DNA of 64,000 nt, from positions 101,198 through 165,197 of the forward strand of contig CAIPHT010000006.1 in NCBI GenBank assembly GCA_903864935.1, read 5' to 3'. Source of the DNA: Candidatus Vogelbacteria bacterium (GTDB lineage Bacteria; Patescibacteriota; Minisyncoccia; Phycocordibacterales; XYD1-FULL-46-19). This document shows, piece by piece, positions 13,275 through 46,111 of the stretch (positions are counted from its first letter, which is position 1; each line of letters starts with the position of its first letter). The notes beneath the pieces are model-generated. The model made no database searches and had not been told where the DNA came from. It saw nothing but the letters and a program-made list of their open reading frames with translations. A program made the translations under genes and the position numbers.

Positions 13275-13312
13275 AAATCAAAAAAAATAAATGAGACTAA
13301 ATTAAAATTAGG

Positions 13313-13618: not shown

Positions 13619-13663
13619 AGCTATTCCCTCTCATACCAACAAACTCCAGTTTGTAAGGATGTT
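13612..13663. promoter_or_regulatory. direct repeat, copy 2, immediately upstream of the arsR-like start; candidate operator/promoter (tataat 6 nt before the ATG on minus)
   Basis: Palindrome ACAAACTCCAGTTTGT. On the minus strand the order is ...ttacaaactggagtttgttggtatgagagggaatagctttggtgTATAATattgtcATG. Confidence 0.5.
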
Positions 13664-13852
13664 AATTAAGTTGAAAAAAAAGAAGGCCCCGCGAAGACCG
13701 GAGTGTCTTCGCGGGGCGGCACTAACTGCCGTTACAGCAGTGCGCAACAGTCCTGAGCGTGTAACGCTTCATGACGAGGGCTCCTCATGGTTAATCCTCT
13801 CCTCTATTATCATTATAGCATAGTCGTCAAGCCCTCCCTCAAAGACGATCCT

Positions 13853-13887
13853 TCTCATACCAACAAACTCCAGTTTGTAAGGATGTT
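13853..13887. repeat. direct repeat, copy 3
   Basis: tctcataccaacaaactccagtttgtaaggatgtt, followed by a partial echo gaggatgttta. Confidence 0.75.
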
Positions 13888-13906
13888 TAAATTTGAGTGA
13901 GGATGT

Positions 13907-14410: not shown

Positions 14411-14431
14411 GAGATTATTTTACCTCAGTCT

Positions 14432-14467
14432 CCTCATCCCAACAAACTCCAGTTTGTAAGGATGTTT
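14432..14467. promoter_or_regulatory. direct repeat, copy 4, upstream of the C39-like gene
   Basis: cctcatcccaacaaactccagtttgtaaggatgttt. Confidence 0.5.
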
Positions 14468-14498
14468 AGGCTTTTTTCTTTCTTCTCCCCTTTTCCCT

Positions 14499-14531
14499 GA
14501 AGTCGTATCTCGCGTAGCCCGATCCGACTTC
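14499..14531. repeat. GC-rich palindromic element, type A (gaagtcgtatctcgcgtagcccgatccgacttc; reverse orientation)
   Basis: Its reverse complement differs by 1 nt from the copies inside holB (48394-48426) and fmt (57638-57670). It directly abuts the stop codon of gene 14532..15230. Confidence 0.8.
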
Positions 14532-15230
14532 TTAGCTTACTATTTTTTTCTTAATGTCTTGAGTTAGAGTTTCAGGAGCATAAGAATAACTTACCGGGAC
14601 ACGCAGAATCGGAAGGCAGGCTTCCCTAAGAGATTTCTCAATATTCTCGTCACGTTCCACTCTATCGCTTCGTTGGTGTGAGCGATCGTCAAGTTCGATA
14701 ACAAGGACAGGTTTCAGATTTGTTTTTTCGCAAATAACAAAGTCCATCTCTCGTGATTTGATAGTATTTCTTAAGCCATAACGATTTTCCGCTTCAAACT
14801 TCACGCCGATTAGTGCTTCTAGTCTGACTTTAGATTGAATAACCCAGTTATTATCTACCGCAATTTTTTCTAAAACTTGATAAAAATTACTTTCTGCTTT
14901 TGAGAGAAACTCCTTTTTGTAAAAATTCGGCTCCTGATTTTCAACGACAACAGGCACAGGTTCTTCATTTGAGATAGTAAGATTAGAAATCTCAGACCTT
15001 CTTTTGTTAAAACTTAGCAAAGAAATTAAACCGTCCAAACCTCTTTTGGCAATAACAATAGGTATAACCAGTGTGACAAATATAGCGGCAAGAGAAAAGA
15101 TTACAATCAAACCATTCTTCGCCCCAAAAAGCCAAAGAATACTCCCAAAAATTAAAATAGTTATAATGGCTCCCGTTTGGTCAATTTTGACAGTTCCCCC
15201 TCGAGGATAGCGTCGATAATATCTTCTCAT
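14532..15230 (-). CDS. membrane-anchored DUF2726-like (PD-(D/E)xK-type) protein
   Basis: Two N-terminal TM helices, then FYQVLEKI...REMDFVICEKTNLKPVLVIELDDRSHQ..D, typical of DUF2726 nuclease-like domains. Confidence 0.55.
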   Translation of the reverse strand: MRRYYRRYPRGGTVKIDQTGAIITILIFGSILWLFGAKNGLIVIFSLAAIFVTLVIPIVIAKRGLDGLISLLSFNKRRSEISNLTISNEEPVPVVVENQEPNFYKKEFLSKAESNFYQVLEKIAVDNNWVIQSKVRLEALIGVKFEAENRYGLRNTIKSREMDFVICEKTNLKPVLVIELDDRSHQRSDRVERDENIEKSLREACLPILRVPVSYSYAPETLTQDIKKKIVS

Positions 15231-15271
15231 ATGTTTATTTTACCTCTTATGATAAGAATTGCCACTCCCCC

Positions 15272-15307
15272 GAAGTCGTACTTCAAGTGAGCCCGAAGTC
15301 CGACTTC
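15272..15307. repeat. GC-rich palindromic element, type B (gaagtcgtacttcaagtgagcccgaagtccgacttc)
   Basis: Same architecture as the copy inside eno (62427-62462): gaagtNNNacttc-aagtgagccc-gaagtNNNacttc. Confidence 0.75.
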
Positions 15308-15371
15308 TTAGGTTTCAGTTATTATGACACATTTTACCCTTGAGACGAGGTCCGACCTCGTTTCTCCTCAA

Positions 15372-15383
15372 GGGGGGGGGGGG
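15372..15383. repeat. homopolymeric G12 tract followed by tgaagttggacctcgcc
   Basis: 12 consecutive G, directly 3' of the stop of gene 15401..16084 (minus). A similar G10+tgaatttcaacctcacc sits at 19888-19915. Confidence 0.8.
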
Positions 15384-15400
15384 TGAAGTTGGACCTCGCC

Positions 15401-16084
15401 TTATTTATCCCCCATTTTCTTGCTATCTAACCAATTTTTATAAATGACATCAATTTCTTTATTTTGCTCTTGGGTAAGATCATTAACAAATCCCCCTTCT
15501 TTAGGCATCTCATCAATAGTTAGCGCTTGTTTAACATAATCAAACAATAAGCGTCTTTTAGCTTCGGGGTCACATAAATTTATTCCTTCATAAGCTAACA
15601 TAGAAATTCTTCCGTGGGCTAAGTCATTTCTTATTTCCTTTACTTTTCTCAAAAACTTAGTGTGTTCACTTTTCCCACACAATTTTTCTACTATATCTAT
15701 CCGATCATTAAAATATATTTTCCCTTGATCATAATCTGGGTGGTCAGGATCTACTTTTTCAAAAGAAATACCGTGATATTTTTTTATGAAATCCAAAAGT
15801 TCGACCGGGGTCTTCCCAAGAGCTTCCTCCATATTTTTAAAAGATACCTTAAGAATATTATCTAAATCTCTCTCTACCGCGTGACAAAACCAAAAAGCAA
15901 ATTGCACAGTAAGAATTTCTTCACTAGATAGCCCCATCATTGTTTGGGGAATAAATAGATTAAAATCAATTGCCTCAAACTTAGACAACCTATCCTTAAT
16001 GTTATCGAAATCATGTTTATTCACAATACTAATTTTAGTCTGATTCAAGAAATATTCGGGTAAAATTACTGGCATTTCTTTCAT
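15401..16084 (-). CDS. HEPN-domain protein (Abi-like)
   Basis: R-x4-H motif EIRNDLAHGR near the C-terminus, all-alpha; 227 aa. Overlaps the upstream gene by 50 nt. Confidence 0.5.
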   Translation of the reverse strand: MKEMPVILPEYFLNQTKISIVNKHDFDNIKDRLSKFEAIDFNLFIPQTMMGLSSEEILTVQFAFWFCHAVERDLDNILKVSFKNMEEALGKTPVELLDFIKKYHGISFEKVDPDHPDYDQGKIYFNDRIDIVEKLCGKSEHTKFLRKVKEIRNDLAHGRISMLAYEGINLCDPEAKRRLLFDYVKQALTIDEMPKEGGFVNDLTQEQNKEIDVIYKNWLDSKKMGDK

Positions 16085-17042
16085 CTTTTGGAAATAACAA
16101 GAAGGTGTTCATCTTCTCTTTTGTAAATTCAAAATTAATTTCATGGGGAAAAACATAATCAGCACCAAAGGAAATATACATATAAGCCCCTTCGGTTAGG
16201 TCTTTTTTAGACAAACTTAATTCTATCAAAAAAGGATTTATTATTTGTTGCGGGCCCAATTTGTGTTTGTCAGTGATGAGATTTAAGCCAAAACCAAACA
16301 TATTCCAACCAGTAAAAAGGCCTATTTGGGATGTTTTTTCTAAGGTAGAATTAATCCCCCCGGAAGTATAATTTATCCAAATGTCTCTTAAGACGCCATT
16401 TCCTTTATTTTGTATAACTAAACCGAAGCGACAAATAATTTTCTCCTCGTCCTCAAAATAGCTATCACCTTGGCTAACAGACCACCAGTAAATTAGCTCG
16501 GAAAGCCTTTGTCGATTATAAAGGCTAGAGATTATATCATGACTAGCAACAACAAAATCAGAACCAGACCTAACATAATATTTGCCCGGAATATCTTTTA
16601 TCTTTAGAGAGGGATTTACTTGAACTGGTGAGAAATAATATTTAGGTATTTCAGTGATTACATAACCATCCCCATTTTCATTTTTTATAGAAAAAGAATT
16701 AACTTCTTGCAAGATTGGCAATGATAATTTAGAGACCGCATTATTTAGTAAACCGACAAAATTATCGGGGTTTTTGACTGGATTTTTACAAAAAGTATTA
16801 TCCCCGTTATCTGTAATACCCCAAACAATTAAGCCTCCAGAAGTATTAGAGAAGCCAGATATTGCTTTGGCCAGATTTTTACGATCACTTTCACTCAAAA
16901 CCATTGATTTTTCTGAAATAGAGATATTTTTATAATCAATATAAAAATTTTCTTGATCACCTAAAATTAAAAGATTATCTATCGCTAAAACGCCCCTTGA
17001 TTTAAAACTTTCTAGCTCATTTTTGTAAGATTTAGATTCCAC
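16035..17042 (-). CDS. AlbA_2 (Schlafen-like) domain protein
   Basis: N-terminal ESKSYKNELESFKSRG...LAKAISGFSNTSGGLIVWGITDNG matches the AlbA_2/Schlafen core; 335 aa. Confidence 0.55.
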   Translation of the reverse strand: MESKSYKNELESFKSRGVLAIDNLLILGDQENFYIDYKNISISEKSMVLSESDRKNLAKAISGFSNTSGGLIVWGITDNGDNTFCKNPVKNPDNFVGLLNNAVSKLSLPILQEVNSFSIKNENGDGYVITEIPKYYFSPVQVNPSLKIKDIPGKYYVRSGSDFVVASHDIISSLYNRQRLSELIYWWSVSQGDSYFEDEEKIICRFGLVIQNKGNGVLRDIWINYTSGGINSTLEKTSQIGLFTGWNMFGFGLNLITDKHKLGPQQIINPFLIELSLSKKDLTEGAYMYISFGADYVFPHEINFEFTKEKMNTFLLFPKDERNASNFTRIFLESD

Positions 17043-17066
17043 TGTTTTACAAATTTTTCATATTTT

Positions 17067-19382
17067 TTAATCTTCTTCAACCACCTCCTGGACAATACCC
17101 TGAACGCTGTCACCTTCCTCGGGAATTATCGGAGAATGTTTTTTGTTTGAGCTTTTTGGTAAGAGAACTCTGCGACCATCTTTTTTATCATAAAATTTTA
17201 TAGTCACATTTTCTCCCCCTAATAACGCGACCACTCTGTCTCCTGTCTCAGCCTTTAACTGCTGGCGGCACAAGACGAGATCTTCATCTCTAATCCCGGC
17301 AAGATCCATAGAATCTCCCTCCGCACGCAAAATGAAATAGTTGTAGCCAGGTTTAATCTTACTTTTCTCAACTTTAATATATTCTTCGATGTTTTCTTCC
17401 CCTAGCAAAGGGCTGCCACAAGGGGCAGAACCGACCAAGGGGACAAGAACAAATTCTTTAATATAAGGAGACGGAATCTTTTCTTTCGTGACGAAAATAT
17501 TCTCTTCTGAAACAGGGGCGCTTGTGAGACTGTCCTTGAAATATTTTTCAGTCTCTTTGTCAGTAAAATAAACATAGCAGCCCTTCATCCCACGAGTCAT
17601 AAGAGTTCGATAAGTATTCTTAATTATCGCTTCGGCTTTTCTACTGGCTTCTTCTGGATTTTGAGCAAAAGCTTTTTTATACCCCTTTAAAGAAGCGTCA
17701 GTTTTTGCTCGTTTACTAGGGTTAGCAATTATTTTCCCATTTCTTGCGACAAGGTCGTCCCCAATAATTACCCCAACATAGTCAACTTCCAAACCTTGGC
17801 AAGTATGGATACAGCCAACTTCTCCAACTGACTCAGGAGCCATGATCCACAAGTTACCGTCGCTCGCTAGATTCCACTGCATCCCAAAATTATGCCCAGG
17901 AATACAAATATCCTTTAAGCCCTTATTTTTCTTACTTACCCAATCCCAACAATAACCAGCAACGATACGAGCTTTATTGTTTATCTTATTTTTTTCAAAC
18001 AACAAATCCCGTAACTCATTTGGAGAATCAACTATCCTAAAATCATAATTTATGCCGTCCAAAGTTGTATTTGCCGTCTCGTTAATCTGAAGAATATTAT
18101 CAAGCCAAGATAAATAGCCATCAGAACCGTTACAACGAAATTGTGACTCTAATTTAAGATTATAGACCTTAACACCAAGTCTATCTGCCCATTTTTCTAT
18201 TTCTTCTTTTTTGCCGATATCATGCCAAGTGACCTTCTGATCCTCGTCTATAAAGAAAATCGAGCACTTAGAGGATTCGATAATTTCCTTAATTTGGTTT
18301 TCACCAAGATTCTTGAACATACCCGATTTAGCGTTAAGCCGATGGGCTTCATCAACAATAAGGGTATCAAAAATATTTTTATCAGAACTCACAAAAGATC
18401 CTGATCCAGTAAAAAGATTCGATATCTCGGTCTTTTTGAGAGTCTCGGCAAGCTTAGCCTCAAAGACTCCGCGGGGCGCTGCGTTCTTTGTAACATATTG
18501 TGTGTTTAGACCAAGTTTAGTAATCGCCACCAGAAGATTAATGGCAACAACAGACTTGCCAGTACCAGGGCCACCCTCAACAATTAAAATATTTTTGTTT
18601 GCCTTAGAAGATTTTTTAGTCAAAGATAGAGCTGTTTCATAAACGAGTTTTTGCTCGTCTATCATCACAAATTCCTCATTCCCCTTCAACATTGAAGAGA
18701 GGCTGTCTGCAAGGTTTTTCGAAGGCCTAATTTCGCCGTGGTCAATACGGTAAAGAGTATTTTTACCTTCTCCGTATTTAACAAACTTTGCAATAAAATC
18801 TTGGAGTTTTTCTTTATCTCCCTTACAAAAAGCTGGGGCCTTCTCTAGATAATCATTATAAAAAGGACTCAAAATAACGCCTTCGTCCACATGATTATGT
18901 AAATAGGCACAAGGCTCAAGGCCAATATTTTCCTCATAAACGGTAGCGTTAAATCCATAAAGAAGAGTAGAGTAAGACCAAGCCTGGTAAGAAGGATGGA
19001 GTTCTTCGCTTGGACCATTTTTAAAACGAGTAAGGACTACAGCATCTTTGTCTGTTTTGTTAATATCCGTCCACTGCTTTAATTCAATTATAATAACTTT
19101 TTCTCGCCTTTCTTCGTCTTCTCCGGTAATGATAAAGTCAATTCTATTTTTTGTCCTTGGTATAGAATATTCAATAGCAACGCCAGAGTCATCTGGGATT
19201 TTGCTCGTCTGCATAACTTTATACATAGCGTCGCCCAGAGAATTTTTCCAAGAGTTATACTCACTACTTCCAACCTTGATATCAATATGAAGTTTCTCCT
19301 TTACTCTAGCCCTAACAATATCCTCTATACCATTAGAAGCGTCTTCTAAGAAACCGAGTTTCGTAGACTGGTAGACAATCAT
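17067..19382 (-). CDS. multidomain protein: PD-(D/E)xK-like N-terminal region + DUF2075-type P-loop ATPase/helicase + C-terminal LexA/UmuD-like S24 peptidase domain
   Basis: RIDFIITGEDEE..VIIIELKQW (D..E.K nuclease-like). Walker A LIVEGGPGTGKS, Walker B LIVDEAHRL, CIHTCQGLEVDYVGVIIG (DUF2075/UvrD-like C-terminus). Then VPLVGSAPCGSPLLG linker and ILRAEGDSMDLAGIRDEDLVLC...VVALLGGENVTIKFY (Ser/Lys dyad of S24). Confidence 0.7.
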   Translation of the reverse strand: MIVYQSTKLGFLEDASNGIEDIVRARVKEKLHIDIKVGSSEYNSWKNSLGDAMYKVMQTSKIPDDSGVAIEYSIPRTKNRIDFIITGEDEERREKVIIIELKQWTDINKTDKDAVVLTRFKNGPSEELHPSYQAWSYSTLLYGFNATVYEENIGLEPCAYLHNHVDEGVILSPFYNDYLEKAPAFCKGDKEKLQDFIAKFVKYGEGKNTLYRIDHGEIRPSKNLADSLSSMLKGNEEFVMIDEQKLVYETALSLTKKSSKANKNILIVEGGPGTGKSVVAINLLVAITKLGLNTQYVTKNAAPRGVFEAKLAETLKKTEISNLFTGSGSFVSSDKNIFDTLIVDEAHRLNAKSGMFKNLGENQIKEIIESSKCSIFFIDEDQKVTWHDIGKKEEIEKWADRLGVKVYNLKLESQFRCNGSDGYLSWLDNILQINETANTTLDGINYDFRIVDSPNELRDLLFEKNKINNKARIVAGYCWDWVSKKNKGLKDICIPGHNFGMQWNLASDGNLWIMAPESVGEVGCIHTCQGLEVDYVGVIIGDDLVARNGKIIANPSKRAKTDASLKGYKKAFAQNPEEASRKAEAIIKNTYRTLMTRGMKGCYVYFTDKETEKYFKDSLTSAPVSEENIFVTKEKIPSPYIKEFVLVPLVGSAPCGSPLLGEENIEEYIKVEKSKIKPGYNYFILRAEGDSMDLAGIRDEDLVLCRQQLKAETGDRVVALLGGENVTIKFYDKKDGRRVLLPKSSNKKHSPIIPEEGDSVQGIVQEVVEED

Positions 19383-19726
19383 AACTTATTGTACTTGGTA
19401 TGCTTCCCCTTTGCTTTTTCGACTGGATATTTTGCCTCATTTTTAGAAACTTTCTTTTCTTCGGCTTTCAAGATATCAATTCCTAGATCATGAGACATTA
19501 TGAGCAGGTAATTTAGAACGTCGGCCAACTCGTCAGCAATTTCGTCTTTGTTTGTTTTAACATATTCTTGAATCTCCTTTTCGCTTTTCCATTGAAAATG
19601 CTCCAGGACCTCTGTGGCCTCAAGAGTTAAGGAAATAGCTAAGTCTTTAGGATTATGAAATTGCTTCCAATCCCTAGCATCACGAAAAGCAATTATTCTC
19701 TTTGTTAGGCTCTTAATATCTGTCAT
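19379..19726 (-). CDS. MazG-like nucleoside triphosphate pyrophosphohydrolase (all-alpha NTP-PPase)
   Basis: EATEVLEHFQW...EIADELADVLNYLLIMSHDLGIDI...KNEAKYP. Its stop overlaps the ATG of the downstream 771-aa gene (ATGA). Confidence 0.7.
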   Translation of the reverse strand: MTDIKSLTKRIIAFRDARDWKQFHNPKDLAISLTLEATEVLEHFQWKSEKEIQEYVKTNKDEIADELADVLNYLLIMSHDLGIDILKAEEKKVSKNEAKYPVEKAKGKHTKYNKL

Positions 19727-19797
19727 TAGCCCTATTTTACCACATTTTCGAACAAAAATAAACCCCCTACTTCGCCAAGGCTTCGAAGGGCAAGCCC

Positions 19798-19886
19798 CCT
19801 AAACCGGGCAAGTATTCTTCCCTAGAGCCGTATACAGGCCACACCAACTAAAGATTGCTTCGAAGAGGCAGAAGCCGGAGAAGAAT
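19798..19886. repeat. ~90-bp direct repeat, copy 1 (left boundary of the Fic cassette)
   Basis: cctaaaccgggcaagtattctt...gccgtatacag...cttcgaagaggcagaagccggagaagaata; about 85% identical to 21451-21540. Confidence 0.8.
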
Positions 19887-19887
19887 A

Positions 19888-19897
19888 GGGGGGGGGT
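19888..19897. repeat. homopolymeric G10 tract
   Basis: 10 consecutive G between the direct repeat and the stop of gene 19918..20190. Confidence 0.8.
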
Positions 19898-19917
19898 GAA
19901 TTTCAACCTCACCCAGG

Positions 19918-20190
19918 TTAAACACTAAAACTAACAACGTCTCCATCAAAAAGAGGAGAATTAATCTGAGGAGAGACATTGTTTATCTCAAAGCCAAGCT
20001 TCCCGGGAGGATATTTTTCTTCAATCTCCGGGTATGTCATAAAAATATTATGTAATAAATAAACAAAGGTTGAACCTTCGCTTAGGATCATCGAAGATTC
20101 TTTTTCTTTTGTAATTCTCGTCAGTTCCTCGTCGAATAAGATGGTAATTTGAATAGGTTGAGGAAATCTTAGGTCATCTTCATTTTCCAT
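19918..20190 (-). CDS. small hypothetical protein (90 aa, possible beta-grasp/MoaD-ThiS-like fold without C-terminal GG)
   Basis: ...PPGKLGFEINNVSPQINSPLFDGDVVSFSV resembles a ThiS/MoaD C-terminal segment. Immediately downstream of fic. Confidence 0.4.
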   Translation of the reverse strand: MENEDDLRFPQPIQITILFDEELTRITKEKESSMILSEGSTFVYLLHNIFMTYPEIEEKYPPGKLGFEINNVSPQINSPLFDGDVVSFSV

Positions 20191-20196
20191 AATCTC

Positions 20197-21378
20197 CTAC
20201 TTCTTTCGTTTAGCTTCTCTATTAAATGACTCGTCAAAGATTGCGTAATAATCAGCATAAATATACTTTTGGGCATATTCGGCATCACCAAGAGGCTCGA
20301 GAATTTTTAGTTTCTCAAGACGTTCGATTACTTTATAAGCCCCTGGTGCCGTAAAGCCGGTCCATTTCATAATCTCAGCGATACCGACAATTGGCTGGCC
20401 AAACAATTTGCGGACAATCTCCAAGGTAGATTCTGCAGATTTTTTACCAAGCTTTTGCATCTTGGCAAAATCACGATCGCGCAAACTGGTAATTTGAGTG
20501 CAAGCCTCAATACTTGAGCTAGCAATCTCGGCGACTCCCTCAAGAAAAAATTCTAGCCAAGCATTAATATCAGAATCTTCATCATGGTAGCCCTGTAATT
20601 TTTGGTAATAAAGCTTTTGATATTTTTTGAAATAACTAGAGAGGTACAAAACTGGTAATTCCAAAATTTTTGCATAGTGAATATACATGGCAATCATCAT
20701 TCGACCAGTACGGCCATTACCATCGGTAAAAGGGTGAATTGTCTCGAATTGAGCGTGGATAAGACCAGCCTTAACAAGAGAGGGATAATCGTCCTCAGCA
20801 TGAATAAACTTCTCAAGATCATCTAGGGATTTCTGCATATCAATAACGGTCGGAGGGACAAAAGAGGCATCAGCAGGAGTTTTGCCTCCAATCCAATTTT
20901 GTGAACGACGAAACTCACCCGGATAGGCATGTTGAGTGCACCGAGCGCCCGTCATTAGTCTCCCATGAAGCTCTCTGATAAATCTGAGAGAAATCGGAAA
21001 CTCTTTTGTTCGTTCGATACCATAATTGACAGCCTTAACGTAGTGTTCAATGTCATCAACATCACGATTGTTGCGGTCCTTTTCTTCGGTGACAGGAGCC
21101 GCCACCGCATCCTGAAGAGTAGCCCTTGTTCCCTCGATTTGACTAGAATAAGCAGCATCTTTCACAATAAACATGGAGATAAAAAAGTCTTTGTCAGGCA
21201 AAAGACGCGTAATGCCATCAAGTTTACCAACCAGACGAATAGCCTCTTCGTGCTTTTTGTAGAGTTTGGGAGTAATTACAAAACCCTCTTTCGGAGGAAA
21301 TGCGAAAGGAGTAAAGGCATTAAAACCTTCTTTTTGTTTAACATAACGGCCAATTTTTGGTTTGTTTACATTACCCAT
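20197..21378 (-). CDS. fic: Fic family protein (AMPylation/filamentation domain)
   Basis: Canonical Fic motif HPFTDGNGRTGR; 393 aa with a C-terminal wHTH-like region. Confidence 0.85.
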   Translation of the reverse strand: MGNVNKPKIGRYVKQKEGFNAFTPFAFPPKEGFVITPKLYKKHEEAIRLVGKLDGITRLLPDKDFFISMFIVKDAAYSSQIEGTRATLQDAVAAPVTEEKDRNNRDVDDIEHYVKAVNYGIERTKEFPISLRFIRELHGRLMTGARCTQHAYPGEFRRSQNWIGGKTPADASFVPPTVIDMQKSLDDLEKFIHAEDDYPSLVKAGLIHAQFETIHPFTDGNGRTGRMMIAMYIHYAKILELPVLYLSSYFKKYQKLYYQKLQGYHDEDSDINAWLEFFLEGVAEIASSSIEACTQITSLRDRDFAKMQKLGKKSAESTLEIVRKLFGQPIVGIAEIMKWTGFTAPGAYKVIERLEKLKILEPLGDAEYAQKYIYADYYAIFDESFNREAKRKK

Positions 21379-21450
21379 ACCTATATAAACATATTATGCT
21401 TTTTTGTTTACATTGTCAACTACGATATAAACTACTTTAAAGCCCCTATT

Positions 21451-21540
21451 CCTAAACCGGGCAAGTATTCTTACTCAACGCCGTATACAGCCCGCACCAG
21501 CTGAAGATCGCTTCGAAGAGGCAGAAGCCGGAGAAGAATA
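21451..21540. repeat. ~90-bp direct repeat, copy 2 (right boundary; encodes the C-terminus of gene 21452..22303)
   Basis: Identical blocks of 22, 11 and 30 nt shared with 19798-19886. Confidence 0.8.
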
Positions 21541-22303
21541 AGATTAAGGGATTCCAAGTGGTGAGTATCGCAAAGAAGAAGAGGGCGACGGCTAGGGCCA
21601 AACGAATTAGCCGATCTCTCTTGCCAATATTTTGGGAGCGGCCTCGGACCGAGCGCTCGGCAAAGAATTTGGCCAAGAAGCGATAAGCGAAGCCGACAAT
21701 AAAGGCGAGGGTAAACATTAACAAAATTAAGCCCCAACCGAAGGGTGAATAGATAAAATTGGCCGGAGACTTACCAAAGAAGTCTCGCTTGAGTTGTGGC
21801 AAAACTTTATAAACATTCACCGTCTCGGCAAAAGAGAAACTCTCAATCTCGCCAACCGCCAAAGCATACTTACCTTTGTTCAGAGGGCTAGTAACGATAA
21901 CTTCATAATCTCCCGCTGGAGCTTGAGACTTATACTCTGGGCCGCGCCAATAATCATCATAGCCAAACTCTTCATGATACTTCTCCCAATTAGAATTTTG
22001 TCCGCCTAAGACGGCCAATTGTTCCCCATCGCGAGAAACAGTCGCCGAGATATCCCGCGGGGGGAGTGCCCCGGTGCCCGCCCTTTGATATGGCAACAAG
22101 ATATTAACATAGAGGGCAAAAGGTTTGTCTGAATGAATTTTATAAATCACCGGCTCCCCCGCCAGTTGCCCATAATAGGCCTTGGAGACCTCGGGGTCAC
22201 TAACAATAATCGGATTGCCGGCGGCGAGGCGGGGTTGATGGGCAAGGGCGAGGATGGGAATCCCTAAAATAATAAGGAGGATGGTGAGGAGGTATTTTTT
22301 CAT
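21452..22303 (-). CDS. hypothetical exported/membrane protein
   Basis: Signal peptide MKKYLLTILLIILGIPILALA, C-terminal TM helices; 283 aa. Confidence 0.55.
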   Translation of the reverse strand: MKKYLLTILLIILGIPILALAHQPRLAAGNPIIVSDPEVSKAYYGQLAGEPVIYKIHSDKPFALYVNILLPYQRAGTGALPPRDISATVSRDGEQLAVLGGQNSNWEKYHEEFGYDDYWRGPEYKSQAPAGDYEVIVTSPLNKGKYALAVGEIESFSFAETVNVYKVLPQLKRDFFGKSPANFIYSPFGWGLILLMFTLAFIVGFAYRFLAKFFAERSVRGRSQNIGKRDRLIRLALAVALFFFAILTTWNPLILFFSGFCLFEAIFSWCGLYTALSKNTCPV

Positions 22304-22351
22304 ATACTAAAATTATGCGCTTAAGTTATTTTTTAAGCAACGAGGGCAAGC

Positions 22352-23308
22352 TTAGATCAGATTAAGAATTAATTTAATAACTTTTTCTTTATCCTTTGGG
22401 TCGCTGCTCGCGACAAGAATGGTTAAGGTGGTAAGAGCCGTTGGGGTAAGTTTCTTGGTATCCAAAATTTTGGCCTGCTCAAGAAACCAGACAAAGGCAA
22501 AAGCCCCGCTTCGTTTATTGCCATCGGCGAAGGGATGATTCTTAACCATAAAGTACAGCAAGTGAGCCGCCTTCTCTTCAACAGCGGGGTAGAGTTCTTT
22601 GCCGGCAAAAGACTGCATCACGTTACCGACAATACCTGCGACAGACCCCGTCTCGCGTTCTCGTCCAAACAACTCGGTGGCCTCCTTTTTGCGCGTTAAC
22701 TCATCTTTCAATCCAAACAAACTCTTAGTGATTTTGTCAGTCGTGAGCTCAACCTTCTTCTTGGTCAATTTGCCCTTAGGCAGAGCGTCTCGGTCATAAG
22801 CATCAAGTGACAACCAAGTGTCCGCAAAAAGTGAGACGAGCTCGGCCACGCCAAGGGCTCCGACGTCGCTACCAGCCGGGAGAAGTTTCTTCATATCCTC
22901 AACCACACCCAAGAACTGGGCATAATTATGTTTAATCACCTTAGGATTAATAGTGAAACCCTTGGTGATGTGCTCACGGAGAGTCTTGGTGGCCCATTGG
23001 CGGAATTGGATAGCTCTTGCTGAATTAGTTTTGTAACCAACAGACAAAATAACATCCAGATTATAAAACTGTACTTGGTAAACTTTCCCATCATCGGCAG
23101 TATGTGCAAATTTTGCACAAACTGAATTTTTGTCTAATTCTTTATCTTTTAGAATATTTCTAATGTGCTTAGTAATAACAGAACGTTCAACACCAAACAC
23201 CTCCGCAATCTGCGCCTGGGTTGCCCAAATTGTCTCAGCCTTATAATCACCCTTGAGCTCAATGGCTCCGGACTTGGCTTGGTAGATTATTAAATTTTTC
23301 TTTTTCAT
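22352..23308 (-). CDS. RhuM-like N-terminal domain fused to Fic/Doc family domain
   Basis: N-terminal IELKGDYKAETIWATQAQIAEVFGVERSVITKHIRNI (RhuM-like); C-terminal HPFADGNKRSGAFAFVWFL (Doc-type HxFx(D/N)GNKR). Confidence 0.75.
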   Translation of the reverse strand: MKKKNLIIYQAKSGAIELKGDYKAETIWATQAQIAEVFGVERSVITKHIRNILKDKELDKNSVCAKFAHTADDGKVYQVQFYNLDVILSVGYKTNSARAIQFRQWATKTLREHITKGFTINPKVIKHNYAQFLGVVEDMKKLLPAGSDVGALGVAELVSLFADTWLSLDAYDRDALPKGKLTKKKVELTTDKITKSLFGLKDELTRKKEATELFGRERETGSVAGIVGNVMQSFAGKELYPAVEEKAAHLLYFMVKNHPFADGNKRSGAFAFVWFLEQAKILDTKKLTPTALTTLTILVASSDPKDKEKVIKLILNLI

Positions 23309-23382
23309 TATTTAAATTATAACACAAAAAAATCCCTGGAGGCTTACTGCCCCAAGTTCGAATTCAGGGTTCATAGCGAAAA

Positions 23383-23706
23383 TTATTCCACCACCACGGC
23401 TGTGCCATAGCAGAGCACCTCGGTGACTCCCTGGAGGAGTTCGGTGGTGTCGTAGCGGACACCAATGATGGCATTGGCACCTTGAGCTTCGGCATGCTTG
23501 ATCATAAGCTCGAAGGCTTCTTCGCGGGTCTTCTCACAGAGGGAGGTGAAGAGGGAGATATTGCCACCCAATATTGTCTGGAGCCCACCGCCGATAGTAC
23601 CGACAATGGAGCGTGAGCGAACAATTATCCCCTTCACAATCCCTAAATTCTTAACAATCTTCTGACCTGGTAATTCGAACGCGGTCGTGGTGTTATTGTG
23701 ATTCAT
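23383..23706 (-). CDS. YbjQ/UPF0145 family protein
   Basis: [27 protein letters not shown]...[10 protein letters not shown], typical of the YbjQ pentamer family. Confidence 0.85.
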
Positions 23707-23751
23707 ATTTATATTTTACAGTATCTATTAAAATTAGTATAATTAAACCCA

Positions 23752-23958
23752 ATGGAACCAAATCTAGAACAACGGCTCGCGGGGCTTGAAGAGAAGATTG
23801 ATAAAATTTTTCGCTCGGTGGAGAAGACGCGCAAATATTTTCTCTGGACCATGATTATCACGCTCGTGTTGTTTGTGCTCCCCCTTATCGGCCTCGTCTT
23901 TGTCGTGCCAATGTTTATGAGCAATTATGTCGGCCAGCTTAGCGGCTTGGGGTTGTAG
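23752..23958 (+). CDS. small membrane protein (68 aa)
   Basis: ORF with a TATAAT 8 nt upstream of the ATG (near-leaderless); one TM helix. Confidence 0.3.
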   Translation: MEPNLEQRLAGLEEKIDKIFRSVEKTRKYFLWTMIITLVLFVLPLIGLVFVVPMFMSNYVGQLSGLGL

Positions 23959-23998
23959 GGATTAAGCTCCCCTAGTGACATCGACCCTTCAACCAAGC

Positions 23999-24505
23999 TT
24001 AGGACCTATCAACTAAACCACCTGAATAATCCGCATCATAAATCTCAACACCGGCACGGAGGATGACTTCTTGTCCCTTGAAACGCGAGAGCTCCCCAGA
24101 GTAAGAATTAGAATAAACCCACTCCACGCCAGCAATAGTCTCCTTGAGTTCAATTGGGCCACGCACTGGCAATTCGTCGGGCGCATTCATTAAGGCCTTG
24201 GTTAAGAATCCATAGACTTCGTTTTTATCAATCTCCTTATCACTCACCTCGCCATAATAGACCATCATCCACACCGGCTTACCATCAGAAAAAATTACCT
24301 CGCGACCACCATAAGGTTCGCCGCCAAAATAATTATCATGGAAGCGCCATGCTCCTTCTGGACTCTCATAAGTGATGGTGGTGGAGCTATCGGCCTCCTT
24401 AACGCGCACTCGCTCTTCGCCACTACCATAACCCTGTTTATTGGCCTCAATTAAAAATTTTTTAATAGCCTCGAGCTGTTCTAAGTTTTGTGACACTTTT
24501 TCCAT
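23999..24505 (-). CDS. hypothetical protein (168 aa)
   Basis: ORF; the YGG.EVIFSDGKPVWMMVYYG segment is suggestive of a conserved DUF. Confidence 0.45.
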   Translation of the reverse strand: MEKVSQNLEQLEAIKKFLIEANKQGYGSGEERVRVKEADSSTTITYESPEGAWRFHDNYFGGEPYGGREVIFSDGKPVWMMVYYGEVSDKEIDKNEVYGFLTKALMNAPDELPVRGPIELKETIAGVEWVYSNSYSGELSRFKGQEVILRAGVEIYDADYSGGLVDRS

Positions 24506-30869: not shown

Positions 30870-32576
30870 CTACCTATCCGGTGGGACTTGGTAATAGTTT
30901 AGCAGAAAACGGGACGTATTCACAAATGGCGTCGTTAGAGTCTCAGAGGAGAATTGGGCCCCCTTAGGATTCATAATAAAGATAAAAACAAGGAAGCGTG
31001 GGTTATAAGCTGGGAAATAACCAAAGAAGGAGTGGAGATAACGGTCATCATAATACTTACCGTTGGCCGGATTGGCAATCTGGGCCGTCCCGGTCTTGGC
31101 GGCAATGGTATAACGCTCCATCTTCACCTTGGGCATCTTACTATCAACAACGGTGGCCAACATTCGACTAATCTCTTCGCTTGTCTCTTTCTTAATCACT
31201 TGGCGTCCAATCTTCGGTTCAATCTTCTGAGTTAATTTATTTTGGTAATCAATCTCTTTAACAATGTGTGGGGTTATCAAATAACCACCGTTACCAAGTG
31301 AGGACAGGGCACGAACGAGAGAGAGCGGTGTCACGGCAATCCCCTGACCAAAAGAGGCGGTGGCATAATCAACAATGCGTGGACTCTTAAGATTCTTCAT
31401 TAAGTTTGTCGCCTCGCCCGGCAAGTCAACCCCAGTCGGTTCGTTGAAGCCATAAGCATTAAAATATTGTCTGAAGCGGTCTTGCCCCAATTTCTCAGTG
31501 ACAAAAGAGGCACCACAATTTAGTGATTGATTAAGCACTTCTTGCATTGGGATAACGCCACGTGCCTTATCATCATAATTACAAATTTTCTTTTTATTTA
31601 AAGTAATACAACCTGTATCATTATAAGTGGTCTTAGCGGTGACCACGCCAGTATCAAGGCCGGCCGCCATGGTGAGCGGTTTGAAGATTGAGCCAAGTTC
31701 ATAAACCCCCTCGACAAGAGGGTTAGTGAGTACGCCGAGATCGGTCACTTTATTCCCCGGATCAAAATTCGGCCAGGCACTCATGGCAATAATCTCCCCC
31801 GTTTTTGGGTCAATAATAATGCCACCAATCTTATCACCCTGCCACTCGTCCTCCGCCTTCATTAATTCCCCTTCAAAAAACTTCTGCGTTACCGGCTCGA
31901 TAGTGGTAACAATATCGCCTTCGGCCGCCGCTGTTTTACCCGAGAGCGAACTCTCAATTCCTGAGAAAATCTCAACAAAGAAATTGGCGAAGGACATCTC
32001 CGAACCACGGGTCAGAACTTTCTCATACTGTCGCTCTAGGCCATAACGACCGATCAAATCACTCTCCTTATAACCCACCAGACCGACAACATGAGAAGCT
32101 GAGGTACCAAAGGGATAAGAGCGAAGCTTCTGTTTATAAATAGTAATCCCTTTGATATTTAATTTCTTAATCGCTTCGGCCTTGTCTGGCTCAACCTTAG
32201 AGGCTAACTCTCGATAGGTCGAGGTGCTATTCACCCATTTAAGCCAATCAGCGGGGTCAAGCGGGATGAGCGGATTAAGCTTGTCATAAGTACTAGAGGC
32301 TTGATCTTTAAACAAACGTGGATTAAGGGTAATGAGATAAGCCGTCTTCATCCCGGCCAAAGCAAAAAGCGAGCCATCCTTCTTCTCAGCAAAGATGCTC
32401 CCTCGATTAAAGATGTCGGTACTTGGACGAAGATATTGTCGATCCCCTTTCTCGCGGTAAAAATCGGATTTAACAATTTGGATAAAAAAAAGTCGAACAA
32501 AACACAATAAGGCCACCAACAAAAAGGCCAAAGCCAGAAAACTTATACGATTACGAGTATTAGAACTAGATTTCAT
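30870..32576 (-). CDS. ftsI: class B penicillin-binding protein (FtsI-type transpeptidase)
   Basis: N-terminal TM, SIFKPLT (SxxK), KTGTA; 568 aa, in the dcw cluster. Confidence 0.85.
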   Translation of the reverse strand: MKSSSNTRNRISFLALAFLLVALLCFVRLFFIQIVKSDFYREKGDRQYLRPSTDIFNRGSIFAEKKDGSLFALAGMKTAYLITLNPRLFKDQASSTYDKLNPLIPLDPADWLKWVNSTSTYRELASKVEPDKAEAIKKLNIKGITIYKQKLRSYPFGTSASHVVGLVGYKESDLIGRYGLERQYEKVLTRGSEMSFANFFVEIFSGIESSLSGKTAAAEGDIVTTIEPVTQKFFEGELMKAEDEWQGDKIGGIIIDPKTGEIIAMSAWPNFDPGNKVTDLGVLTNPLVEGVYELGSIFKPLTMAAGLDTGVVTAKTTYNDTGCITLNKKKICNYDDKARGVIPMQEVLNQSLNCGASFVTEKLGQDRFRQYFNAYGFNEPTGVDLPGEATNLMKNLKSPRIVDYATASFGQGIAVTPLSLVRALSSLGNGGYLITPHIVKEIDYQNKLTQKIEPKIGRQVIKKETSEEISRMLATVVDSKMPKVKMERYTIAAKTGTAQIANPANGKYYDDRYLHSFFGYFPAYNPRFLVFIFIMNPKGAQFSSETLTTPFVNTSRFLLNYYQVPPDR

Positions 32577-32868
32577 TATTAGAAGCTAGCAAACCAAGAG
32601 GCTCGTTGCGGGTGGCAAAACTGGCACTATCCGCAGCATCAACATAACCCATTTTTTTAACCAGCTCTAAATTAATACTGCTCATTCGGCCAAGATAATT
32701 GGCCTCCAGGGATGAGACCTCGGCATCAAGAGCAACAATTTTTTCTTCATTATCACGACGCAAGGCAACCGAAGAAACAGAATTACTAAGAAAATAAACA
32801 TAGGCCCCGGTCATTAAGACCAGACTAGCAATTAGAACCCATTTAATTTTATTTTCCCAATTTTTCAT
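32566..32868 (-). CDS. ftsL: cell division protein FtsL-like
   Basis: 100 aa, single TM plus coiled coil, positioned between rsmH and ftsI. Confidence 0.5.
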   Translation of the reverse strand: MKNWENKIKWVLIASLVLMTGAYVYFLSNSVSSVALRRDNEEKIVALDAEVSSLEANYLGRMSSINLELVKKMGYVDAADSASFATRNEPLGLLASNNEI

Positions 32869-35992: not shown

Positions 35993-36433
35993 TTAGGTAA
36001 AGGCGCCGGCCCCAACCAAACACTTTTTTTGCATTATTTTGAAATCAAGATGAGTTAATTCAATTCGCAACCAATTGCGATAGCGACGGTGAGATTCGGG
36101 TATATCAAAAGAGATGATTATTTTATCATTCGACTCTGGGACGGGAGGATAACTCAAGTGTTGCTTTAAAATATCTTTTTTCTTTTTAGTCTTGTCCCTG
36201 CCCAATTTGGTCAAAAACCAGCCGTCATTCTTCTCTTCGATTATCCCGTTTTTTCTCAAACGCCAGAGGGTCATTCGGAGAACTTTCTCTTTTGCCTTAA
36301 TTTCTTTCTGACGTATTTCCTCGTCCAACCTTTTGTCGGCAAGATAAGTATCGCCGATCAAACGCATTCTTAGGTCACGATAATTACCAGGATGATTAAC
36401 CAAATGAAAAATTATTTCTTCTGCTAGACCCAT
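35993..36433 (-). CDS. hypothetical protein with winged-helix-like segment
   Basis: 146 aa; TLWRLRKNGIIEEKNDGWFLTKLGRD resembles a wHTH. Confidence 0.4.
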   Translation of the reverse strand: MGLAEEIIFHLVNHPGNYRDLRMRLIGDTYLADKRLDEEIRQKEIKAKEKVLRMTLWRLRKNGIIEEKNDGWFLTKLGRDKTKKKKDILKQHLSYPPVPESNDKIIISFDIPESHRRYRNWLRIELTHLDFKIMQKKCLVGAGAFT

Positions 36434-38024: not shown

Positions 38025-38489
38025 TTATTGGATATCAATGATTTTATATTTGTTCTCACCTTTGGGCGTACTAACAGCAACAATCTCACCGATCTTATGT
38101 CCGAGAAGAGCGGCCCCAAGCGGTGACTCGTGAGAAATTTTGCCAAGATTCATGTCAGCTTCTTCGGCACCAACGATCACAAATTTTTCTTCGTTACCGT
38201 TATCTCGCTTAGTCACAACTGTTGTGCCAACTTCAGCCTTGTCAGATTTGTGAGAAGAAATGATAATGCCATATTTAATAATTTCTTCTAATTCAGAGAT
38301 GCGATCTTCAACATCAGCCTGCTTATCACGAGCCTCGTGGTATTCGGCATTCTCGGAGAGGTCGCCTAGAGACTTGGCGTACTCTAAGTTCTCAGCAATT
38401 TTTTTGCGTTCAATAGTCTTAAGTTGTTTAAGCTCCTCTTTAAGAACATCGTATTTCTCCTGACTTAAATAGTGGGGGTTATTTGCCAT
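38025..38489 (-). CDS. greA: transcription elongation factor GreA
   Basis: Coiled-coil N-terminus plus FKBP-like C-terminus (VGTTVVTKRDNGNEEKFVIVG). Confidence 0.9.
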   Translation of the reverse strand: MANNPHYLSQEKYDVLKEELKQLKTIERKKIAENLEYAKSLGDLSENAEYHEARDKQADVEDRISELEEIIKYGIIISSHKSDKAEVGTTVVTKRDNGNEEKFVIVGAEEADMNLGKISHESPLGAALLGHKIGEIVAVSTPKGENKYKIIDIQ

Positions 38490-43613: not shown

Positions 43614-44612
43614 TCAAAGAACACCAATTTGCTCAATCTGCCGTTTTAAACCATACCCATTACCCCACCCCAGCATCCCCAAATATGATTGTAATATCTC
43701 CTCTTTACCACCGGCTTCTCTAATCTTCTTAAACATCCTTCTCTTGGTCGAAGTCCGCAAAACACAATGTTTATAGAAATGCACCCAGCCCAAAAAATCA
43801 ACGCCCGAAGAGAGCGTCTTGATGTAAACTTTATCAGGGTGCAGTTTTAGTTTAAGTTTTTCTGCTAGAAATTCGTCAACCTCAGTGAGAAGCTTTTCTA
43901 AATACTTTTTGTCACTCGACATAATCACAAAATCATCAGCATAACGGACATAATATTTAACTTTAAGCTGATGCTTCATAAATTGGTCAAAATCATTCAT
44001 GTAGATATTTACTAAAAGTTGCGAGGTCAAATTACCCAAGGGTAGACCTTTGCCTCTTTCAGTGCTGTGGAAACTTACAATAACTTGCTCAAGTAGCCAG
44101 ATAATATCAGGGTCTGGTTCAAACTTCTTCAAGATTTTAATCAAAACCTCGTGATCAATTGAAGCAAAGAACTTGCGCACATCACATTTCAAGACCCAAC
44201 AGGCCTGCGTATTGTTTTGTGAGACCTTCCGCCCAAATTCGGCAAATCGTTTAATTGCTCGGCGCGTGCCTTTGTTTAGACGACAAGAATATGAATCAAA
44301 AACAAATTTAGGGTTGAAGTGATAATACAGAACCCGATAAATAGCATGATGGAGTAGACGATCACGAACCGTGGCCTTGTGGATATCACGCGGTTTGGGA
44401 TCAGAAATTTTGAAGGCTTGATAAGAGCCATGGGCATAAATTTTGTTTTTGAGATCAGAATGGAGGGCAATGATATTACTCATGAGATTTCTCTCAAATT
44501 CTTGAACATCTTTTTTAGATTTTTTGTCTCTGATGAATTCCCGCCAAGCGCCTAGCAAATTATCAAGCGAGATGATATCCTCATATTTATGGATAAATTG
44601 AATTTTTCTCAC
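43614..44612 (-). CDS. reverse transcriptase of a diversity-generating retroelement (DGR RT), GTG start
   Basis: RT motifs: LPLGNLTSQLLVNIYMNDFD (DGR-type (I/L)GxxxSQ, not group II QGxxxSP), YVRYADDFVI (YxDD), KT...FLGW. 332 aa. TR/VR pair nearby. Confidence 0.85.
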   Translation of the reverse strand: MRKIQFIHKYEDIISLDNLLGAWREFIRDKKSKKDVQEFERNLMSNIIALHSDLKNKIYAHGSYQAFKISDPKPRDIHKATVRDRLLHHAIYRVLYYHFNPKFVFDSYSCRLNKGTRRAIKRFAEFGRKVSQNNTQACWVLKCDVRKFFASIDHEVLIKILKKFEPDPDIIWLLEQVIVSFHSTERGKGLPLGNLTSQLLVNIYMNDFDQFMKHQLKVKYYVRYADDFVIMSSDKKYLEKLLTEVDEFLAEKLKLKLHPDKVYIKTLSSGVDFLGWVHFYKHCVLRTSTKRRMFKKIREAGGKEEILQSYLGMLGWGNGYGLKRQIEQIGVL

Positions 44613-44733: not shown

Positions 44734-45006
44734 TTGAGAGTTGATAATTTATTTATTGAAACAATAGAAGCGGTTGCCAGTGCCTCTTTTTTGTCTCCAG
44801 TCGACAAGGCACCTTATGTTCGACTGGCCATAAGAAAAATGGATACAATAAAAGTTTTGTTATTGGTTTTATGGGAAACAAGGTCTCTGGATACTAAAAA
44901 ATATGCGGCCATATCTGTAAAACTAGAAGAGATTGGCAAAATGCTCGGTGGTTGGAGTGGCCAATTGCTAAAACAAAACTCCCCCGCAAAAACGGGAGAG
45001 AAATGA
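44734..45006 (+). CDS. avd: Avd-like accessory variability determinant (four-helix-bundle protein), non-ATG start
   Basis: C-terminus LEEIGKMLGGWSGQLLKQN resembles Bordetella bAvd IAEVGRILGSWIARVNRK. Frame open from 44602; first candidate start TTG 44734. Divergent to the RT and ends 5 nt before the TR. Confidence 0.45.
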   Translation: MRVDNLFIETIEAVASASFLSPVDKAPYVRLAIRKMDTIKVLLLVLWETRSLDTKKYAAISVKLEEIGKMLGGWSGQLLKQNSPAKTGEK

Positions 45007-45010
45007 AGGA

Positions 45011-45127
45011 GTTGCGGAAGGCAAACCAATCGTAGGAGTTGTCGAAGTTCTCGATCCAGTTGAGATTCGCCTTGCGCTTCGAGTCGTTCCACCAGACATA
45101 GCAGGCGTTGCGGTTGCCCTCGAAGGA
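45011..45127 (-). repeat. DGR template repeat (TR), 117 bp
   Basis: Aligns gap-free to 45495-45611 with 11 mismatches, all at T on the + strand (A on the sense/minus strand). Encodes an Asn(AAC)-rich segment if translated. Confidence 0.85.
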
Positions 45128-45490
45128 ATTGTGCGTGAGACTATCCGTACCACTGCCCTTTGAATACTCTCGGGGCTGTATATTATTCGGCATCTCTTCC
45201 AATAGAATTACTACTGGATACAATGCCCTAGTGACTCGCACCAAGTAGCTTCATTTTTTGTGAAGTGTCTGCATACATCACTCTATCCGAAACCGTAGTC
45301 GCGAATATTCTCAATGTATGGATACTGGATTCGGTAGAGAGAAACCGTAGTCGCTCACATATTCACCTACTACCACCAACTATCTTACCATAACTAATAC
45401 GAGCTCGGTATCCGCCAAAGCGAACACCGAGCCCAAGAGCTGAAGACCGAGGCCAAAGAACAGAAGTTCAAAGAGGCCCAGGCTTAAGGT

Positions 45491-46111
45491 CTACTTGCGG
45501 AAGGCAAACCAAGCGTAGGAGAAGTCGAAGACCTCGATCCAGTCGAGACCCGCCTCGCGCATCGAGTCGTTCCACCAGACATAGCAGGCGTCGCGGTTGC
45601 CCTCGAAGGAACAATCCGTCGTGGCCACCACGTACATCGGATTTTGCTCGAGCTGTTCGTGAAGCTTCGGGTGCTGTTCGCCAACGGCGAAGACTTCGCG
45701 CGGGTTGGTCCGCTTAAGGCCGTGAGCTCCCGCCCACACATTGGCCTTGTCCCAGTTGCCGTCGCCCTTCGGGAAGTTGAGAAGGATGAGTTCCTCCTCG
45801 ATGACTTCCCCGCCGACCGACGGATACTGACCGCCAACCTTGCGGACATTGTAGCTATCCGGCGTGTCGGGGCCAGCGGCACTCACGGCATCTTGCCACT
45901 CACGGCTCTGATCAACCTTGACCCTGAGAACGTGGACGCGCGCGCCTTCCGGCGGAGCAATGCCCCCCGATTCAAGTTTGAGAGAGTCGAGGAAGTGGCC
46001 AAAAGAACCGTCGTCGATGGCTTGCTGAAAACGATCACGACCCACCTGTTTCTCGTTGGCGATTTTGCGGAGACACTCCGCCTGGCTAACTGTTACGGGC
46101 TTGCGACTCAT
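45491..46111 (-). CDS. DGR target protein with C-terminal variable (C-type-lectin/FGE-like) domain
   Basis: C-terminus ...FEGNRDACYVWWNDSMREAGLDWIEVFDFSYAWFAFRK is encoded by the VR; GC about 58%. Confidence 0.8.
   Translation of the reverse strand: MSRKPVTVSQAECLRKIANEKQVGRDRFQQAIDDGSFGHFLDSLKLESGGIAPPEGARVHVLRVKVDQSREWQDAVSAAGPDTPDSYNVRKVGGQYPSVGGEVIEEELILLNFPKGDGNWDKANVWAGAHGLKRTNPREVFAVGEQHPKLHEQLEQNPMYVVATTDCSFEGNRDACYVWWNDSMREAGLDWIEVFDFSYAWFAFRK
45495..45611 (-). repeat. DGR variable repeat (VR) at the 3' end of the target gene
   Basis: Same 117-bp alignment. VR codons differ from TR only where the TR sense strand has A (AAC>GAC/GGC/GTC/TTC, AAG>ATG/GAG, GAC>GCC). Confidence 0.85.

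Follow-up and report, generated by a model that had tools for sequence, protein, structure and literature searches.

A 64,000-nucleotide stretch of a Candidatus Vogelbacteria genome (contig CAIPHT010000006.1; hereafter, the window) carries a SoFic-type fic gene and a small open reading frame (ORF) of 90 amino acids, orf90, inserted at the 3′ end of a conserved gene for an exported protein (the target gene, 21452..22303, minus strand). The gene itself is intact, and a second, orphaned copy of its 3′ end lies on the far side of the two-gene cassette. On balance, we consider it probable that this arrangement arose by 3′-end displacement, that is, homology-anchored recombination with DNA from a relative, completed by one illegitimate junction. 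We favor this reading because the two gene ends behave as two alleles, the orphan is host-like DNA lying between foreign blocks, and no recombinases were found among the ORFs scanned. The locus falls into a known class, that of gene ends orphaned when recombination inserts a defence gene, itself known, into a defence hot spot, and it changes no concept; it does provide a clean, datable footprint of the entry of defence genes into the very small genomes of Patescibacteria.

The two copies of the gene end form a direct repeat of 90 nt, both read on the minus strand (19798..19887 and 21451..21540), with 80 of 90 bases identical (89%) and identical blocks of 22, 11, and 31 nt. An earlier note on this DNA, made from the sequence alone, had reported repeats flanking fic with about 85% identity and a longest block of 30 nt; the repeats are real, and the two figures are corrected here. 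That note had also assigned the right repeat to the end of the exported protein, correctly so: the right, proximal copy supplies the working last 29 codons and stop of the target gene. The left, distal copy is an orphaned 3′ end of 29 codons and a stop, lacking a gene body and host-like in composition, which keeps the frame of the right copy and reads LFFSGFCLFEAIFSWCGLYTALGKNTCPV-stop. Exactly two occurrences of the 31-nt block exist in the window, compared with none expected after shuffling, and no third copy of the 90-nt repeat is present in the 64 kb. A scan of the whole window for other coding-derived repeats returned only the template and variable repeats of a diversity-generating retroelement (DGR) and a pair of MreB paralogues.

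Both junctions were recovered in independent metagenome contigs at 99.4–100% identity (L001 and L002 across the right junction, L095–L099 across the left, with only L096 below 100%), so the repeat structure is real and not an assembly chimera. Exact-protein look-ups with the target protein, MazG, and orf90 returned no empty site or other arrangement from the same population, every contig having the arrangement of the window; the corresponding look-up of the Fic protein gave no match. A 9-nt inverted match at the cassette ends (GAATAGGGG / CCCCTATTC) was set aside as likely due to chance, as it leans on the G-run and on the repeat itself. A clustering of contig ends at the 3′ end of the target gene, taken as a possible sign of a hidden repeat, was likewise discarded, being weak (12 vs. 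7 on the 5′ side) and subject to bias from the way in which loci were retrieved.

The strongest indication of the origin of the two copies lies in how they differ. Eight codon differences between them are synonymous and one is non-synonymous (S/G). Neutral drift on the repeat sequence would yield about 75% non-synonymous changes, and one or none among ten would then be expected with a probability below 1e-4. Because the differences are almost all synonymous, the copies evolved as coding sequence in separate lineages; on this codon pattern, the left copy is not an in-place duplicate that drifted, and the pair represents two functional alleles, one of them stranded recently. The silent-site divergence between the gene ends thus suggests that the cassette came with a relative's version of the neighboring gene. 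The peptide encoded by the orphan is identical to that of the closest genome in our comparisons, the Candidatus Paceibacterota metagenome-assembled genome (MAG) L003, which shares 91.5% identity in the target gene. The right, left, and L003 copies diverge mutually by 9%–13% (8–11 of 87 nt), and the crossover pattern among the three is a mosaic without a single breakpoint. In base composition, both copies are host-like: the GC content at third codon positions (GC3) is 0.59 in the orphan and 0.76 in the right copy, compared with 0.44–0.62 in host genes of the window and only 0.26–0.37 in the seven genes from DUF2726 (14532) to Fic (21378). The orphan is therefore host-type DNA between two low-GC foreign blocks.

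Comparison of the target gene across 80 species loci and 80 metagenome loci (~160 in all) places the insertion in a wider context. The gene is conserved across Patescibacteria. Downstream of it, TspO commonly follows either directly or after one to several variable genes, nearly all of which are co-oriented with the target gene; the commonest inserts are the photolyase-related DPRP, DNA methylases, DUF1295, Schlafen helicases, and restriction enzymes. Judged by this gene content, the site between the YgaP-like target gene and TspO is a phylum-wide variable locus, a hot spot at which defence and accessory genes are exchanged. In L003, a different restriction–modification island of 5.4 kb occupies the same position, and synteny resumes at ~15366 of the window. 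In L032, the target gene is followed directly by MazG and the helicase-S24 gene (the latter split into two ORFs) with no cassette, the order that the window would have if the cassette were removed.

Second copies of the gene tail occur at three of the ~160 loci: the window, L008, and L022. The L008 copy is a decayed orphan of 117 nt, with an in-frame stop and a frameshift, and bounds a cassette of Glyoxalase and InPase-like genes; the two L008 copies show 14 synonymous versus five non-synonymous codon differences. L006 serves as the empty site for this insertion, the flank past the L008 orphan being 92% identical to L006. Identity of L008 to L006 is 80% in the orphan copy and 70%–83% in the gene body, compared with ~90% in the proximal copy, values expected if a new gene end arrived with the cassette and the resident end was pushed downstream. 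In L022, a remnant of ~45 nt follows a block comprising an 88-aa ORF and DPRP, and lies within a ~95-nt insert that L006 lacks at the same DPRP junction. The orphan remnants thus measure ~45 (L022), 90 (window), and 117 nt (L008), with boundaries that differ among independent insertions. Most of the ~160 loci have variable content at the site and no remnant. Neither tandem full-length paralogues nor both repeats without a cassette, the pattern that the earlier note had named as contradicting an insertion, were found at any of them. That note's description of an insertion which duplicated the end of the gene and left it intact through the proximal copy agrees with the synonymous divergence, with L032, and with the L008/L006 and L022/L006 comparisons. 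Its call for relatives with a single-copy site was answered in part, by L032 without the cassette and by L006, which is empty with respect to both L008 and L022.

Under 3′-end displacement, DNA from a related lineage would have carried the 3′ part of the target gene followed by SoFic and orf90. The incoming DNA would have used the conserved 3′ region as a homologous anchor for pairing with the resident gene, and the far end of the incoming DNA would have been joined illegitimately within the resident gene, 29 codons before the stop, duplicating the tail. Such an event would leave an intact gene with the incoming 3′ end (the right copy), the cassette, and the stranded resident 3′ end (the left copy) beside its old neighbors, MazG and the helicase. 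The window has the features by which such displacement is recognized: the conserved 5′ part of the gene is kept, a new 3′ end and downstream genes are inserted, and the old 3′ end is retained as an orphan. The unequal remnant lengths fit random illegitimate joints and therefore support this scenario, and the rarity of remnants at so variable a site is expected because ordinary double crossovers leave none. Divergence of the target gene from L003 rises from 3.7% in its central 410 nt to 9.2% in its last 152 nt (Fisher p = 0.016), which suggests a crossover just upstream of the right copy. Natural transformation may have been the route of entry, and the illegitimate joint may have formed at a poly-C tract next to the orphan. 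Saccharibacteria have been shown to undergo natural transformation that depends on Com and proceeds by homologous recombination, and conservation of com genes extends throughout the candidate phyla radiation (PMC10633639). If the recombination scenario is true, the locus illustrates a turnover of defence islands by transformation and homology, and not by mobile-element machinery, in a phylum with poorly known gene flow.

Several observations weigh against this interpretation. The exact empty site was not found in a close relative; L003, the one close genome, has another island in place, and the order of events is for that reason not directly observed (a metagenome scan for close relatives returned the L003 contig again and nothing else). 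The orphan differs from L003 at 9 of 87 positions and the proximal copy at eight of 87, and because the two are equally distant, the L003 comparison does not reveal which copy is native. The divergence step within the target gene is modest at p = 0.016, with the 152- and 410-nt boundaries chosen after the data had been inspected. Competence in the lineage of the window would have to be assumed by analogy with Saccharibacteria. Finally, the same hairpin and poly-C tract stand at both foreign-to-host junctions, and pure illegitimate joining does not predict such a motif.

This motif deserves description. A spacer with a short hairpin motif, GGGTGAGGTTGAAATTCACCC, followed by C9 (19888..19917, minus strand) lies exactly at the junction of cassette and orphan copy. 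A second copy of the hairpin motif followed by C12 (15372..15400, minus strand) lies between the low-GC island, at the stop of the HEPN gene, and the sequence conserved with L003. The two can be written as a motif of ~21 nt, GnGAGGTnnAAnTTCAC, followed by a C-run, which marks both foreign-to-host junctions; at the first of these it occupies 19888-19914, between the orf90 stop and the orphan. The pattern G-GAGGT-NN-AA-N-TTCAC followed by C9 or C12 (minus strand) occurs only at these two positions in the window (19888-19914 and 15372-15400), and the motif is absent from all ~180 other loci compared. Besides these two, the 64 kb contain a single other run of at least eight G or C, next to the reverse transcriptase gene (three in all), and five independent assemblies agree on the length of the C9 run. 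In folding predictions, the junction regions formed small hairpins only and gave nothing significant (the z-score of −2.1 in one segment being due to a terminator-like hairpin of the host), and an Rfam scan of 13000-24000 detected no Rfam family or other structured element. The hairpin and poly-C could represent a fragile site prone to illegitimate joining, an element end, or a fixed hot-spot border. We regard as very unlikely a bolder view that takes the hairpin and poly-C junctions together with the orphan ends in three genomes as an undescribed process of cassette capture in Patescibacteria, either free of integrase or served by one in trans, with the hairpin and homopolymer as the element end and the gene tail as the landing pad.

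The principal alternative, and the reading given in the earlier note, is site-specific integration with duplication of an attachment (att) site, the cassette being a decayed integrative islet. A circular element whose attP mimicked the last ~90 nt of the gene would have integrated through a tyrosine or serine recombinase since lost or supplied in trans, leaving an att-flanked islet, similar to a cis-mobilizable element (CIME), in tandem with an older islet. The layout is the classical one of direct repeats with the proximal repeat restoring the gene; synonymously diverged duplicate gene ends are known from e14 in icd/icdC (PMC13626634); elements lacking an integrase are known to accrete in tandem at the 3′ ends of genes (PMC5704250), and the hairpin and poly-C in which both low-GC blocks end may be a shared element end. 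However, Pfam searches identified no integrase, resolvase, or transposase domain among the ~64 window ORFs scanned, a set comprising the gene-like ones among 89 listed ORFs of at least 100 aa (the rest being mostly overlapping or on the opposite strand), which includes 23999..24505 and leaves out seven non-overlapping ORFs such as 32566..32868, 35993..36433, and 38025..38489. No recombinase was found by Pfam in the neighborhoods of L008 and L022 either. Recombinase families, integrases included, are also missing from the 25 most-matched Pfam families listed for the 139 ORFs just downstream of the target gene (63 of the 80 species loci), a list that reaches down to two-member families, so that further two-member families and single occurrences may include recombinases. 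Site-specific integration predicts neither remnants of unequal length nor a functional promoter so close to the repeat: the conserved Fic promoter begins ~10 nt from the right repeat and leaves no att arms. A second copy is present at only three of ~160 loci, and the second low-GC block ends without a third att copy. Additionally, viral contigs searched with the gene-tail motif and the Fic protein gave no match, and the cassette DNA matched no phage in the phage and plasmid collections, with weak similarity to the Fic core on Rhizobium and Agrobacterium plasmids only. SoFic genes show no flanking repeats in four other genomic contexts. Integron cassettes are bounded by attC sites and served by an IntI integrase; with no integrase among the ORFs scanned, no structured element between 13000 and 24000, and no repeats around SoFic elsewhere, the locus does not qualify as one. 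These data lend no support to an att duplication or a decayed islet, and we consider site-specific integration unlikely.

A reversed order of events uses the same recombination but exchanges the roles of the copies. SoFic and orf90 would have been present first, and the block from MazG to HEPN would later have brought a donor's last 29 codons, joined illegitimately after orf90, making the orphan the donor end. That MazG and the helicase directly follow the target gene in L032 is compatible with this order, as are the equal distances of the two copies from L003 and the motif and poly-C shared by both block ends, which resemble a fixed right-hand border receiving a second block. By analogy, the L008 locus argues otherwise, since there the divergence level of the resident gene body is shared by the orphan but not by the proximal copy, and an imported proximal end is in keeping with the raised divergence from L003 across the final 152 nt of the working gene; we therefore judge the reversed order quite unlikely. 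The direct repeats taken alone would also be compatible with a tandem duplication of the gene end in place (or a paralogue mostly deleted), followed by drift and insertion of the cassette between the copies. The eight-to-one ratio of synonymous to non-synonymous differences rejects drift of a dead copy (P < 1e-4), and ~160 loci contain neither the tandem paralogues nor the cassette-less repeat pairs that such a history might leave, so that this account is hardly credible.

Displacement of gene ends has parallels in the effector–immunity loci of Rhs, contact-dependent inhibition (CDI), and type VI secretion systems (T6SS), where homology-facilitated illegitimate recombination (HFIR) has been proposed to explain the orphaned 3′ regions (PMC5361080). 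As in the window, the upstream gene there provides the anchor, an incoming 3′ end arrives with additional genes, and the old end is orphaned downstream without an integrase (PMC5361080). In those systems, however, the displaced piece is a variable toxin domain, whereas in the window it is the tail of a conserved YgaP-like transmembrane protein; the cargo (SoFic and orf90) has no functional tie with the anchor gene, an array of immunity genes is missing, and remnants persist in only three of ~160 loci. The e14 and phage 21 insertions in E. coli icd likewise duplicate a 3′ end, with a functional proximal copy and mostly silent differences from the stranded icdC (PMC13626634), but e14, a prophage of 15 kb, encodes an integrase of its own and excises upon SOS induction, in contrast to a segment of 1.56 kb with no recombinase found and a remnant length that varies among insertions. 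CIMEs at the 3′ ends of fda and tRNA genes in streptococci are also integrase-less, bounded by repeats that include a gene end, and arranged in tandem with an islet (PMC5704250); their attL and attR sites are recognized by known integrases of related integrative and conjugative or integrative and mobilizable elements (ICE/IME), whereas no such integrase or fixed att boundary was found here.

The cassette comprises the two genes that the earlier note had described, fic (20197..21378) and the 90-aa ORF (19918..20190), both on the minus strand. The former encodes a Fic AMP-transferase with Fic_N, Fic core, and C-terminal domains (Pfam); its core motif, HPFTDGNGRTGR, conforms to HxFx(D/E)GNGRxxR, and an SSQIEG inhibitory motif lies within Fic_N. 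It matches the PADLOC SoFic profile PDLC03963 (E 8.8e-104; residues 18–382 on profile positions 5–359 of 361) and SoFic chains in PDB (E about 1e-22). The designation "Fic toxin" in the earlier note is acceptable but imprecise, as these matches identify a SoFic-type, self-inhibited Fic defence protein, with a predicted role against phages. Upstream, a promoter and operator region (21379..21450, minus strand) contains TTGACA-17-TAATAT at 21419..21391 and operator-like repeats at 21361-21390 and 21403-21432, and is conserved with the Fic genes of other genomes up to ~21441. The conserved SoFic DNA unit thus consists of the ORF and ~60 nt of promoter/operator (20197-21441 of the window), ending at the stop codon. 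More than 7000 homologues were identified, and the best 120 all share 80%–100% protein identity (one identical, 119 at 80%–85%), many of them on contigs that barely exceed the length of the gene. Elsewhere in Patescibacteria, SoFic lies beside a type I restriction system, GmrSD, topoisomerase I, or the L006 homologue of the target gene. SoFic therefore stands out as an extremely conserved (80%–85% amino-acid identity), widely scattered single-gene module in this phylum.

Two further Fic genes lie near homologues of the target gene. In L035 (10859-11646), a distant Fic (24% identity) begins 73 nt past the stop of the gene, the same spacing as in the window, with the contig ending inside it; in L006 (6864-8045), a close SoFic homologue lies ~1.9 kb upstream of the target-gene homologue on the opposite strand. 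The orf90 gene starts 6 nt past the Fic stop behind an AGGAG ribosome-binding site. Its description as beta-grasp-like in the earlier note could not be verified: a Pfam search gave no match, the single homologue found (58% identity) adjoins a HicA-like gene, and the AlphaFold2 model (mean predicted local distance difference test score, pLDDT, of 52) was too poor for a fold search. Like known single-gene SoFic defence, the window gene has full-length PADLOC and structure matches, Fic and inhibitory motifs, and a small ORF directly downstream, as in the E. coli SoFic/AS1 pair, for which a small downstream anti-SoFic gene has been reported (PMC12249575). With 90 aa and no detectable family, orf90 occupies the position of AS1 (47 aa); by this analogy, it may act on SoFic as a small partner or as an antitoxin.

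The cassette forms part of a low-GC3 defence island (14532..21450, minus strand) containing DUF2726, HEPN_Apea, Schlafen AlbA_2, helicase-S24, MazG, the orphan copy, orf90, and SoFic. The MazG-like gene (19379..19726) shares 4 nt with the gene for a Schlafen group 3 helicase with a fused, C-terminal S24 (LexA-like) peptidase (17067..19382), both identified by Pfam on the minus strand. The pair gives weak PADLOC matches (PDC-S41, Nhi, AbiO) and may constitute a two-gene defence unit not yet described. Beyond the target gene, a RhuM and Fic/DOC gene (22352..23308, minus strand; PADLOC candidate PDC-S23, E 9e-109) is inserted between the latter and YbjQ; L003 lacks this gene and has the two neighbors 2 nt apart. 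Fic-family defence genes thus flank the target gene on both sides. Metagenome contigs identical to the window (100%) from several independent assemblies all break at 20454, within Fic, and at ~23001-23014, within RhuM-Fic, probably because conserved defence genes common to many co-occurring genomes tangle the assembly graph. Direct repeats of 46 nt around the DUF2726 gene were considered as target duplications and dismissed, being dispersed palindromes of the repetitive extragenic palindromic (REP)-like type that also occur at 48378, 57633, and 62427. The genomes of Patescibacteria reportedly abound in defence genes and in islands acquired horizontally (PMC12455944).

The target protein itself is an exported or membrane protein of 283 aa. 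Its N-terminus resembles a signal peptide, and its C-terminal part carries a YgaP-like transmembrane domain (YgaP-like_TM, PF11127, E 1.2e-13, residues 224–282). The mature protein apparently begins with His (ALA|HQPR). Recurrent neighbors of the gene among loci L003–L180 include TspO, the photolyase-related DPRP, photolyase, DUF1295, and SOUL haem-binding genes, which suggests a conserved light- or oxidative-stress cluster around the target gene in Patescibacteria.

Other features of the window lie apart from this locus. The DGR occupies 43614-46111 and comprises a reverse transcriptase (43614..44612, minus strand; RVT_1, E 1.3e-27), a template repeat of 117 nt (45012-45128), and a variable repeat (45495-45611) in the 3′ end of the ORF 45491..46111 (minus strand). 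All 11 mismatches between the repeats change a template A (minus strand) to another base in the variable copy; the DGR ORFs 44894..45244 and 45491..46111 gave no Pfam match. A 48-nt motif with the palindrome ACAAACTCCAGTTTGT occurs in four copies (13227-13274, 13616-13663, 13840-13887, and 14419-14466), each just upstream of a minus-strand gene (an ArsR-type helix-turn-helix gene, a C39 peptidase, and others), and is at least 90% conserved in L003 and L029; it is probably the promoter or operator of a small regulon. Dispersed intergenic palindromes of REP-like or terminator-like appearance form several families: 14494-14534, 48378-48418, and 57633-57673; 15272-15307 and 62427-62462; 35833-35876, 36457-36500, and 55807-55850; and 6477-6544 and 34388-34455. 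Additionally, the pattern GAAGTNNNACTTC occurs eight times in the window, compared with 2.6 expected.

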